The notes beneath the pieces were generated by a model. It saw only the letters and a program-made list of their open reading frames with translations. It had not been told where the DNA came from and did no database searches. A program made the position numbers and the translations under genes. A stretch of DNA of 64,000 nt from a virus. Every line of letters begins with the position of its first letter. Position 1 is the first letter of the stretch. Shown piece by piece: positions 1 to 30,954 of this stretch. The stretch covers positions 24,666 through 88,665 of IMG/VR virus record IMGVR_UViG_3300031369_000002. One strand, 5' to 3'.

Positions 1-2841
1 ATTCTTATCAGCACATTTAGGACAAAAATCAACACTTAAAGATTTATCTAAAAAGTTTACAGGAATAGTTTTCCCGCACTCCACACAAGAAGGTCTAAAA
101 AAATCAGCCTGTATATCCTTAAAAGAAACAAAACTATCAACTCTTAAAATATTATGCTTATAAGCAGCACCAAACACCTTATTAAATAAAGCATTATATA
201 CTTCAAAAGGAGACGCTTTACCTTTAACAAATAATTTAAGCTTTACCTCTAATCCTTCTCTCACAGCCCATATATCACTAACAAAATCCTTAGCATTACA
301 TTCAATAACATTAAGCCCAGCCCTATAAACAACCTCTCTAATTTTCATAGTGATTTTTTCAGCCTTATGCCAATAATTAAGGGCATTAATAACAGACATT
401 TCGGTTTTATCCGTATCTATTTGATATAAAGAATATCCTTTTTGTTTCTTTAAACTTTCCATAGAAGAGGGTACTTTAATACCATCTAAAAGCTCAATAC
501 CAAAATGAGTTAATTCTTTATTCATCTCACTTATTAAGTTTATTAAATCTGTCTCATTTTTAATAAACTTTTCTAATAAACCAAATTCTACATAATCGAT
601 CCCATACAACCAATTTTTAAATTTAATATTATCAGACACAAACCTAATACTTCTTTTAGTAATAGGTATATCAGCTTTCCAAGCAGCTCGCCTAATTAAA
701 CATTTCCAGTAAACATTTTCTACATACTTATATTTTTCATGTATACAAATTTTTAATCTCACTTTTTCTCTTATAGTTGATTCATCCTTACGCTTTAAAG
801 AGGATAAATTTTTTAAACTAATATCTTTTTCTCTAGCCTTATAAGACTCCTGGACCTTTTTTGCTTCTACAGGACTACAAGCCCCACAAGTACTACAACC
901 ATGTAGACACTTTTTAACAAGAAAACCATTTTTATTAGGTCCTCTATGATCTTCTCCTAACTCTGTATTAAGCATAAAATCACAAGACTTTTTATACAAC
1001 CTATAAATATAATCTTTAGTTACTCCTATATCAATATGATCCCAACCAAAAATATAATCCCAAGGTTTTTCTTTAAAATAATACTCATAAGACACTCCAT
1101 ATTTCTGCAGGTTCTTTTCTAAAGTTTCTTTCATTTTACTATTTACGGCTCCTATATAAACAGCATCTAATTCATCATAAGAATCCACCAGAGCATAACC
1201 GCCAAGCCTATCACATAAATGAGCTACTTGAGTACTCCACAAATAATCCTCTTTTGTTTTTTTGCCTAGTGTAAATTCTATACCTAAATCTCTTAATTTT
1301 TGAAAAACACCAGTTAACATCTTTTCTCCTAAAGTAACCCTATGCCATTGAAAAGGAGTCCAGGATTCAATTAATAAAGGTGTAAAAGAAACCCTAACAC
1401 CTATAGCGGACCCCATAGAATTCTTTAAATCTACAATTTTTTTACACAACTCTAAAAAATCTTCTATATCTTTATCAGACTCAAAAGGCAAGTTAGCTAT
1501 CATATAAAGTTTTAATTTTTTATATCCACCTTTTATAACATTTTCACAAGCTTTTAATATAATTTCCTTAGTAGCCCCTTTATTTACAAAAGTCCTTAAT
1601 CTCTCTGAGCTTCCTTCTACTCCTACGGCCAATTGATTCATGCCACCCTCACCAGATATTAAAGAAAAATTAGCGTCCTCAGCCATACTATCAATCCTCT
1701 GAGACTGAGAATCAAAAGTATCAGACACTTCCTCTAAGATAGTCTTAGTTAATAAATTCTTTTGAGTATATCCAGTATACTCAAAAGCTGTTGGAAAAGC
1801 ATAAATAGAACCAGAATTTTTAATATTAGCTTTTAAAGCTTTAACCATATAAGAAATAGACCTTTCCCTATATGGCCTATATCGATACCCTACAGCACAA
1901 AAAGAACAATTACCAGCATTACAACCCCTAGCCAATTCAACCTCTCCTAAACCCATCTCAGGAAAAATCCAAGGTACTGGAGGAGCATCCACACAAGGCA
2001 CATTATTTAAATCCTTAACATGTCTTTTTTTAATCCTCTTAGGTATATCATCATATTTAGCCGCAAAACAATCTATTTTAAGCTCATTATTCACCTTTTT
2101 ATATTTAGGGTATAAAAACTTAGGCATATATAAGAAGTCGTATTCTTTAGCTAAAAAATGCAGTAATTCTTCACGTCCTTCTTTAGTATAATAAAAACTC
2201 TCAGCTTCCTTTTTAAAAGAGTTAATATCTTCTAATACAGCCATTAAACCAGGAGACCCTTTTTCATCCTCAGCCTCTCCAATAAACATAAAATCTACTA
2301 TAGGACTCCAAATCTCAGGACTCCCAAAAGTCGAACCTCCTGAAATAATCAAAGGATAATTTTCTTTCATTTCTTCTCTGTCTTTCCATCTTACAGGAAC
2401 ACCAGACATCTTTAATATTTTAACTACATTCGCTAAAAATGGAGGGAATCCCAAAGAAAAGCCTACCACATCAAACTCACCCATAGGCCTCTTAGACTCC
2501 AAACCAAACACAGGAATCCCCTCAAAATATCTTAATTCTTTATGACTAATAGGCATAAAAGACCTTTCAGCTTTAAAGGGTCTTATACCATCCGATCTCC
2601 TATACTCATTAATCAATTTATATAATAAAGGTCCTCCTTGATTACCAACAAAATCTCTATAGCCCCAAGGATTTGCTATTAAAAATTTTAACTCAGCAGC
2701 ATCCCATTCTTTATAAAATAAATCTTTTCCCCATTCTCCATAAGTATTACACTCACAACCTAAAAAAGCCTCAGGCATTTCCATTTTAGGCATAATTGAA
2801 GTTAAAAATTTTTCTATTTGTATTTTCGTCATTTCCACCAT
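1..2841 (-). CDS. Radical SAM protein, TIGR03960-like, fused to a TIGR03936/DUF2344-like domain and a C-terminal zinc ribbon (3' end runs off the window)
   Basis: Manual translation, not in the ORF track because there is no stop in the window. ATG at 2841 after AGGAGG; segments checked at the start, middle and end are in one frame. N-terminus IPVFGLESKRPMGEFDVVGFSLG...YPLIISGG...FIGEAED; ELARGCNAGNCSFCAVGYRYRPYRER (Cys motif 1897-1923); CLHGCSTCGAC (877-909); KVRLKICIHEKYKYVENVYWKCLIRRAAWKADIP; CVECG...CPKC at the edge. Confidence 0.85.
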   Translation of the reverse strand, partial: MVEMTKIQIEKFLTSIMPKMEMPEAFLGCECNTYGEWGKDLFYKEWDAAELKFLIANPWGYRDFVGNQGGPLLYKLINEYRRSDGIRPFKAERSFMPISHKELRYFEGIPVFGLESKRPMGEFDVVGFSLGFPPFLANVVKILKMSGVPVRWKDREEMKENYPLIISGGSTFGSPEIWSPIVDFMFIGEAEDEKGSPGLMAVLEDINSFKKEAESFYYTKEGREELLHFLAKEYDFLYMPKFLYPKYKKVNNELKIDCFAAKYDDIPKRIKKRHVKDLNNVPCVDAPPVPWIFPEMGLGEVELARGCNAGNCSFCAVGYRYRPYRERSISYMVKALKANIKNSGSIYAFPTAFEYTGYTQKNLLTKTILEEVSDTFDSQSQRIDSMAEDANFSLISGEGGMNQLAVGVEGSSERLRTFVNKGATKEIILKACENVIKGGYKKLKLYMIANLPFESDKDIEDFLELCKKIVDLKNSMGSAIGVRVSFTPLLIESWTPFQWHRVTLGEKMLTGVFQKLRDLGIEFTLGKKTKEDYLWSTQVAHLCDRLGGYALVDSYDELDAVYIGAVNSKMKETLEKNLQKYGVSYEYYFKEKPWDYIFGWDHIDIGVTKDYIYRLYKKSCDFMLNTELGEDHRGPNKNGFLVKKCLHGCSTCGACSPVEAKKVQESYKAREKDISLKNLSSLKRKDESTIREKVRLKICIHEKYKYVENVYWKCLIRRAAWKADIPITKRSIRFVSDNIKFKNWLYGIDYVEFGLLEKFIKNETDLINLISEMNKELTHFGIELLDGIKVPSSMESLKKQKGYSLYQIDTDKTEMSVINALNYWHKAEKITMKIREVVYRAGLNVIECNAKDFVSDIWAVREGLEVKLKLFVKGKASPFEVYNALFNKVFGAAYKHNILRVDSFVSFKDIQADFFRPSCVECGKTIPVNFLDKSLSVDFCPKCADKN

Positions 2842-2865: not shown

Positions 2866-2962
2866 AAAAGCCCCTGATAAATAGATTGGTAATATCAGAG
2901 GCTTTTTATTAAATTATGACTATCTCTTTCTTTATTGTAACGTAAAATCAGTTAAAAATCAA
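2866..2962 (-). promoter_or_regulatory. sigmaA-like promoter plus terminator-like hairpin in the radical SAM gene leader
   Basis: TTGATT(2957-2962)-17-TACAAT(2934-2939); hairpin AAAAGCCUCUGAUA...UAUCAGGGGCUUUU (2866-2907) with a G-U pair on the minus strand. Confidence 0.6.
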
Positions 2963-4292: not shown

Positions 4293-5276
4293 CTAAAATA
4301 AAGCATATGTATTCGCCAAATCAATGATCACACTATTATTATCCCTTACAATAGCGGACTCATTTAATAAAAATAATTTCTTTATCCATTCAATAGACTG
4401 CTCAAAGTATTTAATATCTTTCTCTATACCTATAAAAAATCTCTTAGTATTTGCACAAGCTATTCCAGTACCGCCCGACCCAAAACAAAAATCTAAAACA
4501 GTATCACCCTCATTACTAAAAGTTGTTATTATATCCTCCAATAATCTTATAGGCTTTTGCGTAGGATGTACTTTAGCATAATCCTTTTTATAATAAAACA
4601 CACTGCCTTTAAAATTACCTTTGATATTAAAAGTTTTATTATGTCTTGCAAATCTATCACATACTTTAGCATAAGGCCAAAAGTTAGGAGCTTTATCAAT
4701 ATGGAATACATTAATAAGCTCCTGATATATATCCTCAGAACATAATTCAAATTGTAGAGTATCCCACCTTAAAAAGTGTTCTGCTTTTCTATGTCCTAAG
4801 ATATGATTTATTTTAGTCCTATTAACATTTATATAAGACATTAAGTATTTTACATACAATCTAACAGGGTTATTATGGTTGCTATCATATTTCTTACAAA
4901 AAATACTTATGTCCTCATGATATTTAACCAAAGCTTTTTTAGCTATTAAATTATTTGCAAAATGATCCTTAACCCATACAGCATCATATAAAAAGAACAA
5001 ATTTTCATGTTTATAACTTCTTAATTGTGAAGTATAAGGCTCCTGGGAAAACACTATTAAATAACCCTTAACTCTCAGCAACTTATTACAATGATTAAAA
5101 AATTTGTCCATGTCTAACCTATCATCCCAGGACGTATCCTGATTAGAATAACCTTTTAATTCAATATCTTTAATCGTTCCATAAGGAGGGTCCACCAAAA
5201 TTAAATCTAGCTCCTTATGGATTTTAGTCATCTCTTCAAAACAATCACCATTATATAAAAGCATAATTCCTCCCAT
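4293..5276 (-). CDS. DNA N6-adenine/N4-cytosine methyltransferase (beta class)
   Basis: DPPY catalytic motif, HPTQKP, VLDFCFGSGGTG SAM-binding motif, FIGIEKD. Confidence 0.92.
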   Translation of the reverse strand: MGGIMLLYNGDCFEEMTKIHKELDLILVDPPYGTIKDIELKGYSNQDTSWDDRLDMDKFFNHCNKLLRVKGYLIVFSQEPYTSQLRSYKHENLFFLYDAVWVKDHFANNLIAKKALVKYHEDISIFCKKYDSNHNNPVRLYVKYLMSYINVNRTKINHILGHRKAEHFLRWDTLQFELCSEDIYQELINVFHIDKAPNFWPYAKVCDRFARHNKTFNIKGNFKGSVFYYKKDYAKVHPTQKPIRLLEDIITTFSNEGDTVLDFCFGSGGTGIACANTKRFFIGIEKDIKYFEQSIEWIKKLFLLNESAIVRDNNSVIIDLANTYALF

Positions 5277-8077: not shown

Positions 8078-8920
8078 CTAAGAGGCTAATAATGCTTTTC
8101 TTCCAGTATAGAATTTCACTACACTGGCTTCAACCTCTGCGGTATACATCAAAGACTCAAACCATTTATTTTGATTTGGTCTTTTAGCTACGACTTTTTT
8201 AGCCCTGGCCCCTCTTTCTACTAAACCCTGAGTTAATAATAACCAGTTTAAGATTTTTTCAAACTCTACAGTACCACTATGATGACGAAACTCAATAGTG
8301 CCGTAAACAGCATAACTGTTTACATTTAATTTTCTATATCTAGCTCTATAAGTGTCTGTGAATACTTCAAGCAAGTCACTGACTGTACTTTTAGAGTCGA
8401 TCAAATCAAATTTAGCTTTTAAATTCATACCTGATAAAGTTCCAACATCTGAGAAGTTTAAGCAATACATATTAGCATTGCCTTTTCTTGAGAGAGGCAT
8501 AAAATTATCAATTTCATCCTCAAACTTTAAATAGGCCTTAGTTAGCGTTTTCCAGCTATCCAAGGTATAATCAATAATTTCATGATGGATATGCAAGCCA
8601 CAAGACTTGTTAACAGTGGCTCCTATGGTATCTAATACAGCACATACAGCCTTTAACTGATTAACACCATCTTTACCAGATAACGGCGGCGATACTAACT
8701 CATAACCTTTAAAATTAACTGTTTTAATTGATTCCTCAGGCTTTATGGAACAGTCAGTAACAACTTTCCAACAGTTATTTAATACTTCATGAGTATAACC
8801 AGCATACACACAAGGTATACCTTCACTCATTAAAACATCTGCTATAGCTCTACCAGTATACTGCTGAGGTACCAACATTTCTATTTCAATCCCAAACTTT
8901 CTACCAGTTAATTTTTTCAT
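8078..8920 (-). CDS. putative amidoligase (COOH-NH2 ligase, Amidoligase_2-like)
   Basis: FGIEIE, WKVVTDCSI, ELVSPPL, NKSCGLHIH, RYRKLN, GTIEFRHHSGT motifs. Confidence 0.9.
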   Translation of the reverse strand: MKKLTGRKFGIEIEMLVPQQYTGRAIADVLMSEGIPCVYAGYTHEVLNNCWKVVTDCSIKPEESIKTVNFKGYELVSPPLSGKDGVNQLKAVCAVLDTIGATVNKSCGLHIHHEIIDYTLDSWKTLTKAYLKFEDEIDNFMPLSRKGNANMYCLNFSDVGTLSGMNLKAKFDLIDSKSTVSDLLEVFTDTYRARYRKLNVNSYAVYGTIEFRHHSGTVEFEKILNWLLLTQGLVERGARAKKVVAKRPNQNKWFESLMYTAEVEASVVKFYTGRKALLAS

Positions 8921-29853: not shown

Positions 29854-30954
29854 CTAATCAAAATCAATTTGTAATTGATTTATAATAGCTAAATTATTAT
29901 CATGCTCAAATAATAAAGGAGCTTTTCTAGTTTTCTTATCATCCCCTAATAAAATCTCTAAGTTAGGATTGTCTATACAAGAAATAGCCCCTAATATATG
30001 CTCATGATTAACTCCTATAGTTCGATCAGCATATGACCAGGACACATCTATTACCTCAGTAGCCATATTACCGTATCTATCCTTAGCCCGCAAAATTAAA
30101 CTATTCTTTTTTAAAGCCAATAAAACTCCTTTTGTATTTTCATCCGCAGTAATCCGCACTCTCCTAATACCCGCTCGCAAAGCTGCCTTATCCACAGATA
30201 ATTTATATTTATTCTTCCTTGCGGGTTCAACTAATAAAGCTTCGACATCAGGATAATCCACATTATTCTTAGTTATTAAAAAGCAATCAATACCTGAGAA
30301 TACTAATATATGGTCCTCAGTCTCCCCAATACCGATATTTTCTGTCTCAGTATTTTTAAGCATTTTTATTAAATCTTCTACAGCTCCAACAGGAAACTGC
30401 AAAGATATATCCTTCAAAGCTTCTAATTTAACCTGTCTAAATATAGCTCCATCAGAAGCCATCACCGACCCTTTAACTACATTAATCATCTGCAAAGCAG
30501 GTCTAACAGATTCCTTAGCAGCAGCCCCTTTTACTTTTAATAAAGCACTTATTAAAGCCAATCTAGGTACATCTATTTTAGTACAAGATTCAATCTTAGG
30601 AATCTCAGGATAATCATCAGGATTCATTAAATGTATAGACCACTCAGCCCCAGCACACTTAATTAAGGCTTTATCATCAGCCACAGAGATTAAAACTATA
30701 TCATCCTCACAACCATTAATAATCTCTTTTAAGGTTTTACCAGGAAATATGGCCTTACCTGAGGACTCTATTTCAATTAAATCACTAGAAGCCCTGATAG
30801 AAAGTTCTAAATCAGTAGCTATTATTTCAATGTCTTTATCTACTTTTATATGAAAGTTTTTAAGTATTGGCATAAAATCGCCTTTTGACAATAATACTGC
30901 AGAGGCCTTATTTAATAAAGCCTCTAATACAAATTTTTTAATCCTAAATTTCAT
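29854..30954 (-). CDS. dnaN: DNA polymerase III beta sliding clamp
   Basis: 366 aa; MPILKNFHI, IATDLELSI, DDYPEIP, RPALQMIN, MASDG, DYPDVE. Confidence 0.88.
   Translation of the reverse strand: MKFRIKKFVLEALLNKASAVLLSKGDFMPILKNFHIKVDKDIEIIATDLELSIRASSDLIEIESSGKAIFPGKTLKEIINGCEDDIVLISVADDKALIKCAGAEWSIHLMNPDDYPEIPKIESCTKIDVPRLALISALLKVKGAAAKESVRPALQMINVVKGSVMASDGAIFRQVKLEALKDISLQFPVGAVEDLIKMLKNTETENIGIGETEDHILVFSGIDCFLITKNNVDYPDVEALLVEPARKNKYKLSVDKAALRAGIRRVRITADENTKGVLLALKKNSLILRAKDRYGNMATEVIDVSWSYADRTIGVNHEHILGAISCIDNPNLEILLGDDKKTRKAPLLFEHDNNLAIINQLQIDFD

Follow-up and report, generated by a model that had tools for sequence, protein, structure and literature searches.

A viral-type radical SAM fusion protein with a divergent DUF2344 domain of pseudouridine synthase fold and a proposed role in nucleic acid modification

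The bacterial pair TIGR03960 and TIGR03936/DUF2344 (PF10105) is among the most widespread radical S-adenosylmethionine (SAM) families without a function, and our literature search found no functional study of this pair, of radical SAM enzymes that resemble pseudouridine synthases, or of a link to RNase E, rplU, and obg, which agrees with what a preliminary description of the DNA considered here had said of it. That DNA, referred to below as the window, is a stretch of 64,000 nucleotides representing bases 24,666–88,665 of an 88,665-bp virus record in IMG/VR (IMGVR_UViG_3300031369_000002), and at its edge, on the minus strand (window 1–2841), lies a gene in which a radical SAM module is fused to a DUF2344-like domain. 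We propose that the fusion protein is probably a catalytically active radical SAM enzyme whose substrate is a nucleotide within DNA or RNA that it modifies, with the C-terminal domain and a terminal zinc ribbon binding the polynucleotide. As to the target, we lean slightly and only tentatively toward phage DNA at the replisome over RNA, which we regard as a possible but less probable choice. A nucleic acid target is favored because of the pseudouridine synthase fold of the C-terminal domain, its charge of +11, the replisome neighborhood of the viral genes, and the RNase E/G linkage of the bacterial relatives. The preliminary description had left open modification of nucleic acid, protein, or envelope, and the evidence narrows this choice toward nucleic acid, the other two being less favored.

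The open reading frame (ORF) is free of stops over 947 codons (residues 1–947 of 951) and is open at the window edge. In the full record (L001) the gene has 951 codons without a stop or frameshift (L001:1486–4341, minus strand; protein P0002), its final four codons and stop lying just beyond the window (L001:1486–1500), so the frame of 947 or more codons first described is indeed uninterrupted, and all three cysteine motifs listed with it are found. Codon differences from two relatives at 95% identity are synonymous only in 90 cases and non-synonymous in 51, which argues for purifying selection, and the relatives overall span 95% down to ~25% identity. On these sequence comparisons we regard the gene as real and under purifying selection.

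The N-terminal ~620 residues are best described, from profile searches, as a divergent TIGR03960-type radical SAM module. The TIGR03960-like region (residues 16–621; window 979–2796, minus strand) gives the best NCBIfam match (E = 5e-71) and covers profile positions 3–581 of 605, though its score of 239.9 bits is below the curated cut-off of 462.3. Within this region is the radical SAM core, PF04055 (residues 302–466; window 1444–1938, minus strand; Pfam E = 9.5e-14), which at 52.3 bits is above the gathering score of 29.5, and together these two matches uphold the earlier assignment as a TIGR03960-like radical SAM protein. Ahead of the core is a domain of the PF19864 (Radical_SAM_N2) family (residues 72–208; window 2218–2628, minus strand; Pfam E = 1.9e-24; 86.3 bits against a cut-off of 29) that includes a D183..GEAE191 motif and, as modeled, appears to be a Rossmann-like, cobalamin-type domain of the kind to which cobalamin binds in class B radical SAM enzymes. 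Nine core residues (C307, C312, F314, C315, E409, K421, K444, D458, and Q498) are invariant across the viral-type and bacterial relatives, and the three cysteines together with F314, the aromatic residue before the last of them, are invariant in 68 sequences. For the full-length protein, an AlphaFold2 model computed from 68 aligned sequences has a predicted local distance difference test score (pLDDT) of 94.2 and a predicted template modeling score (pTM) of 0.93, and was compared with solved structures by VIA-align. Residues ~50–547 are closest to the B12-dependent methylase MgmA (9ccb; Z = 19.6, root-mean-square deviation (rmsd) 3.0 Å over 372 residues, 18% identity), followed by MtaB, MiaB, and RimO (Z = 16–18) and then by OxsB (15.9), CysS (15.4), AprD4 (15.1), and TsrM (15.0).

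The C-terminal domain (residues ~689–908; window 118–777, minus strand) is assigned by hhalign and structure comparison as a divergent DUF2344 domain of TruA-type fold. No match to DUF2344/PF10105/TIGR03936 was obtained in Pfam, NCBIfam, or PHROGs with the whole protein or with the C-terminal 262–322 residues alone, the Pfam and NCBIfam scans of the isolated domain extending to E ≤ 10, and at the same limit the PF10105/TIGR03936 family model has no match in the phage genome. The C-terminal 260–320 residues match no other model of these three collections either. Synechococcus elongatus and Thermotoga maritima both have matches to the family model. A hidden Markov model (HMM) made from 77 viral-type C-terminal domains matches the PF10105-bearing bacterial protein P0055 at the position of its PF10105 domain (2e-13). 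The viral domain aligns by hhalign with the C-terminal part of fused bacterial proteins (98.8%, E = 1e-16, 205 columns) and, over its whole length, with 11 standalone bacterial DUF2344 (PF10105) proteins (97.7%, E = 2e-12, 209 columns), the first of which scores PF10105 at 5.8e-60. Although the domain is invisible to the Pfam and NCBIfam HMMs, these profile alignments identify it as a divergent DUF2344 domain, as had been supposed.

When the C-terminal domain was modeled alone (pLDDT 90.3) and compared with 48,161 PDB representatives, the top eight matches were all pseudouridine synthases of the TruA family (Z = 10.6–12.5, rmsd 3.1–3.8 Å), including TruA itself (Z = 12.5, rmsd 3.2 Å over 196 residues), PUS10 (12.3), Pus1 (11.6), and PUS3 (10.6). 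TruD, Cbf5, and TruB score 8–8.7; ferredoxin-like, ACT, and Cas6 folds, which are unrelated, stay under 8; and Foldseek concurs on the pseudouridine synthase fold. Neither the fusion protein nor the C-terminal profile has a sequence-level match among solved PDB chains, and the ESM Atlas gave no usable match. The domain has a net charge of +11, the two N-terminal parts having −3 and −2, and its conserved residues (R705, R717, R718, A719, S736, D737, G747, D749, and Y750) are led by basic ones, R705, R717, and R718 being conserved at 92–97%. From the order of secondary structure elements in the model, D737, in an 'FxSD' segment, may be the positional counterpart of the catalytic aspartate of the synthases.

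Three further features lie toward the C-terminus. The second cysteine motif, CLHGCSTCGAC (C645, C649, C652, and C655; window 877–909, minus strand), is a candidate auxiliary Fe-S or zinc site, of which C645, C652, and C655 are invariant in the close clade. The preliminary description was right about its presence; the motif aligns with the C..C..CG.C of the bacterial family and is therefore ancestral. The protein ends in a zinc ribbon, CVEC...CPKC (C919, C922, C940, and C943; window 13–87, minus strand; located by alignment), the CxxC...CxxC ribbon described at the outset, whose cysteines are conserved at 100, 90, 94, and 70%, respectively. It is specific to the viral-type clade and is missing from the bacterial relatives and from a short viral subclade. 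In the linker ahead of the ribbon is the peptide QADFF (residues 911–915; window 97–111, minus strand), which resembles the beta-clamp-binding pattern QL[SD]LF; its D is 77% and its F 71% conserved, 25 of 77 relatives have Q..hh, and the conserved form of the peptide can be written (Q)xD[FLM]F. No such clamp-binding-like pattern was found in other replisome proteins of the source phage.

The genomic surroundings of the viral and bacterial genes differ. The arrangement commonly seen in 39 viral loci, most of which encode proteins no more than 35% identical to the query, runs SbcC, SbcD, a PD-(D/E)XK nuclease, the beta clamp, and an SbcC-like ATPase. The radical SAM gene comes next, and after it come small genes and then the clamp loader, the large terminase subunit, and the portal. 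The source phage has, downstream of the radical SAM gene, a clamp loader gene (DNA_pol3_delta2 in Pfam) at 1 kb and the portal gene at 8.6 kb, and encodes its own beta sliding clamp (window 29,854–30,954, minus strand; PF00712, E = 4.8e-17, above the cut-off), a possible docking partner of the fusion protein. Among the bacterial relatives, which occur as a single gene or a gene pair, RNase E/G is next on the same strand in 31 or more of 66 loci spread over at least seven phyla, including Cyanobacteriota, Thermodesulfobacteriota, Bacillota, Actinomycetota, Myxococcota, and Nitrospirota (loci L083–L162); L21, L27, and Obg continue some of these loci, and RNase HII is found in cyanobacterial ones.

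A mechanism that accommodates these features can be outlined. C307, C312, and C315 would hold a [4Fe-4S] cluster at which SAM is cleaved reductively to give a 5′-deoxyadenosyl radical, and the extra residue in the cysteine loop would merely lengthen the loop, as in OxsB. The basic pseudouridine-synthase-like domain, together with the ribbon, would hold a polynucleotide and place one of its nucleotides at the barrel, where the radical would initiate its modification. The N-terminal class-B-like domain is a possible carrier of a second cofactor, and the simplest guess at the chemistry is C-methylation with the cofactor on that domain. In the phage the target would most likely be nucleic acid made during replication. 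As D737 is just 74% conserved, the pseudouridine-synthase-like domain is probably a binding module rather than an isomerase.

Several points weigh against this proposal. Carriage of cobalamin by the N-terminal domain is putative, since the Pfam scan gave no match to the B12-binding domain PF02310 in the fusion protein, while some bacterial relatives do carry PF02310, and AprD4, another high-scoring structure, has such an N-terminal domain yet is no methylase. A common fold does not establish a common substrate, and relatives have E, N, R, S, or G in place of D737. The phage gene order may mirror the timing of expression and not function; the beta clamp gene is 27 kb from the radical SAM gene in the source phage; and the DFF peptide, with a pLDDT of ~81 in the model, could be a structural packing element. 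The evidence on the DNA side and on the RNA side diverges, and catalysis by any member of the family is a prediction from sequence.

The alternatives differ in what the protein would act on and in whether it acts at all. An RNA-specific enzyme, which, as would its bacterial relatives, would modify or process tRNA, rRNA, mRNA, or primer RNA and use its pseudouridine-synthase-like domain for RNA binding and base flipping, would allow the phage to alter the stability or translation of host or phage RNA, and we rate it as possible though on the unlikely side. The pseudouridine synthase fold is known from RNA enzymes only, genes of the bacterial relatives are linked with those for RNase E/G, L21, L27, and Obg in different phyla, and the three-part design resembles that of the RNA methylthiotransferases MiaB and MtaB (Z = 16–18), all of which speak for RNA. 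However, RNA-related genes adjoin the phage gene in none of the 39 loci, there are no tRNA genes within the window, and the clade-specific ribbon and DFF peptide, together with the clamp and clamp-loader neighborhood, indicate the replisome. We also put forward, as speculative and rather doubtful, a more specific version of the DNA reading, in which the viral-type enzymes are tethered to the clamp and install an undescribed, replication-coupled radical modification of DNA, the pseudouridine synthase fold serving to flip a deoxynucleotide.

An enzyme directed at a protein or a small molecule, in which the pseudouridine-synthase-like domain has been reused to bind a partner that could be a ribosomal protein, RNase E, or a protein of the replisome, appears to us improbable. 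The best structural match, MgmA, methylates a protein glutamine, RimO modifies ribosomal protein S12, and genes for L21 and L27 are among the bacterial neighbors; on the other hand, a highly basic domain with the fold of a nucleic acid enzyme, next to a ribbon, suits a polynucleotide better, and no conserved small partner gene that might encode a peptide substrate adjoins the gene in the 39 viral loci. Least probable by far is a degenerate, non-catalytic protein in which CX4CX2C disables the cluster site and only a structural or regulatory accessory role at the replisome is left. A non-canonical spacing and a TIGR03960 score under the curated cut-off are what such a protein might show, but the three cysteines, the aromatic residue before the last of them, and the other core residues are all invariant, the CX4 lineage keeps its motif down to 47% identity, CX4 arose repeatedly, OxsB is active with the same spacing, and the codon changes are those of purifying selection. 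We prefer an active enzyme with a nucleic acid target. Should the phage enzymes prove to act on DNA or RNA, their modification chemistry would be a new one, with relevance to phage–host conflict; should they also be clamp-tethered and act on DNA, they would represent a new kind of phage DNA modification and give the TIGR03960/DUF2344 superfamily its first function. Three results now make the family testable, namely, the pseudouridine synthase fold, the tie to RNase E/G, and a large branch, found in viral contigs, that lies within replisome blocks and has a possible clamp-binding peptide.

The cluster motif itself, CNAGNCSFC (C307, C312, and C315; window 1897–1923, minus strand; from sequence and alignment), calls for separate comment. 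The segment C307-NAGN-C312-SF-C315 is one residue longer than the CX3CX2C of the nearest CX3 relatives. CX4CX2C is common to the four-member clade of the query (P0002, P0004, P0005, and P0006; 99% support), which keeps it across divergence to 47% identity, and it recurs elsewhere in the family (P0147, P0164/P0169/P0188, P0167, P0177, P0211, and P0216). All bacterial relatives and most viral-type relatives have CX3CX2C. Five state changes to or from CX4CX2C are needed on the tree, and its well-supported branches force at least four. The same spacing is found in OxsB, a crystallized and active cobalamin-dependent radical SAM enzyme (PMC9204698), and in a whole megacluster, Megacluster-4-11, of RadicalSAM.org (PMC9477430). 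With at least four independent origins and the precedent of OxsB, CX4CX2C is, by analogy, a recurrent and tolerated loop insertion that would imply no new mechanism, and it is of little importance on its own. The preliminary description had suggested a phylogeny to look for a phage-specific clade with CX4CX2C. A clade of viral contigs does exist, but CX4CX2C as its marker is rejected, most of its members having CX3CX2C.

That clade was defined from homologs collected by a word-indexed search together with an exhaustive HMMER search, and as many as 4,945 cluster representatives gave matches at E ≤ 0.001. About 100 representatives of 50%-identity clusters align end to end with the fusion protein; beyond this viral-type set are thousands of bacterial TIGR03960 proteins at 22–29% identity. 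Full-length relatives are encoded on at least 40 IMG/VR viral contigs of 35–152 kb. No viral-type relative was found in 185,579 prokaryote genomes, for which a single peptide pattern was scanned, and this argues only weakly that such relatives are absent. In the tree, which covers the N-terminal 640 residues, the branch that separates 68 viral-type rows from 14 bacterial ones has 100% support by the Shimodaira–Hasegawa-like approximate likelihood ratio test (SH-aLRT), and we accordingly read the viral-type clade, seen here solely in viral contigs, as the sister of the bacterial TIGR03960/TIGR03936 pair and not as nested within it. A short viral subclade (P0017–P0034, ~830–870 aa; loci L025–L029 and L035) has lost the second cysteine motif and the ribbon and has kept the pseudouridine-synthase-like domain, so each of the two lost elements is dispensable to the core enzyme. 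One protein of 289 aa (P0179) comprises the C-terminal domain and ribbon alone, 45% identical to residues 668–945, and may represent either a split form of the viral-type enzyme or part of a longer gene.

Many relatives are 1,200–2,062 aa long because of inteins, which occupy at least eight sites and, from the alignments, make the family what we would call an intein hot-spot. One to three inteins each are present in P0010, P0016, P0129–P0131, P0133–P0136, P0139–P0141, P0143, P0145, and P0146, and likewise in P0148–P0150, P0156, P0162, P0182, P0189, P0196, and P0224. Among the sites are positions immediately ahead of C307 or C312 in the cluster motif, one in the GxEG|SQR motif, and, in some relatives, one ahead of the third cysteine of the second cysteine motif (...THN|TCGVC). 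Inteins at active-site motifs fit an important, conserved enzyme. The fusion gene of the window has no intein.

The fusion gene has a GGAGG box 8 nt 5′ of its ATG and a hairpin also 5′ of the ATG, and a terminator-like hairpin begins at its stop codon. Hairpins followed by T-rich runs are present on both flanks (L001:1465–1487, outside the window, and window 2868–2900), which suggests that the gene may be its own transcription unit; promoter-like matches 5′ of the gene are no commoner than expected by chance. All but two of the ORFs of at least 100 aa in the window are on the minus strand. Strand asymmetry is very strong and even, each 2-kb bin of window 1–64,000 having a GC skew between −0.27 and −0.46, and the GC content is ~31%. 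Genes for a DNA methyltransferase (window 4293–5276, minus strand; phrog_67, 3e-56) and an amidoligase-family protein (window 8078–8920, minus strand; phrog_2443, 1.5e-42) lie 1.5–6 kb upstream of the radical SAM gene.

The source record has direct terminal repeats and a CheckV value of 100%, and the phage genome is estimated to be complete. It encodes a DNA polymerase, DnaB-like and superfamily 2 (SF2) helicases, a ligase, a UvsX-like recombinase, tail proteins, a portal, a DNA methyltransferase, and an amidoligase; the polymerase, helicases, ligase, portal, and tail proteins bear out the phage origin first proposed. The DNA polymerase is less than 33% identical to that of any cultured phage, which is too distant for a host to be assigned. 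Near-identical DNA is present in salt-marsh metagenomes, with partial matches in marine-sediment and wetland metagenomes. An anaerobic host had been read from the radical SAM gene, and we reject that step, as the family is present in cyanobacteria and a relative of the N-terminal part is encoded by a Microcystis phage; the habitat leaves anoxia possible.

Our analysis places the fusion protein among several described systems, each of which it resembles in part. The bacterial TIGR03960 and TIGR03936/DUF2344 proteins share with the query the order PF19864, radical SAM core, C..C..CG.C, and DUF2344, and can be aligned with it end to end. The query differs from bacterial TIGR03960 in scoring below the cut-off (240 versus 462 bits), in having no PF10105 match, and in belonging to a separate clade, and the viral type adds the zinc ribbon and the (Q)xDFF peptide, has frequent inteins, replaces the bacterial 'GF(N/H)PxP' segment with 'FxSD...NW', and is found in a phage replisome context where the bacterial relatives are found with RNase E/G. 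The class B enzymes MgmA (9ccb), OxsB (5ul3), TsrM (6wte), CysS, and TokK serve as comparators for the N-terminal half, the Rossmann-like domain and barrel superposing for MgmA and OxsB, but none of the five has a pseudouridine-synthase-like domain. TruA, Pus1, PUS3, and PUS10 share the fold of the C-terminal domain over ~200 residues, although at 7–14% identity and with no profile-level sequence match for the TruA family, and the catalytic aspartate that is invariant in true pseudouridine synthases has at best a partially conserved counterpart in D737 of the query. MiaB, MtaB, and RimO are of analogous design, with an N-terminal flavodoxin-like domain, a radical SAM barrel, and a C-terminal substrate-binding domain, but the query does not have their conserved N-terminal three-cysteine auxiliary cluster, and its C-terminal domain is pseudouridine-synthase-like where theirs is TRAM.

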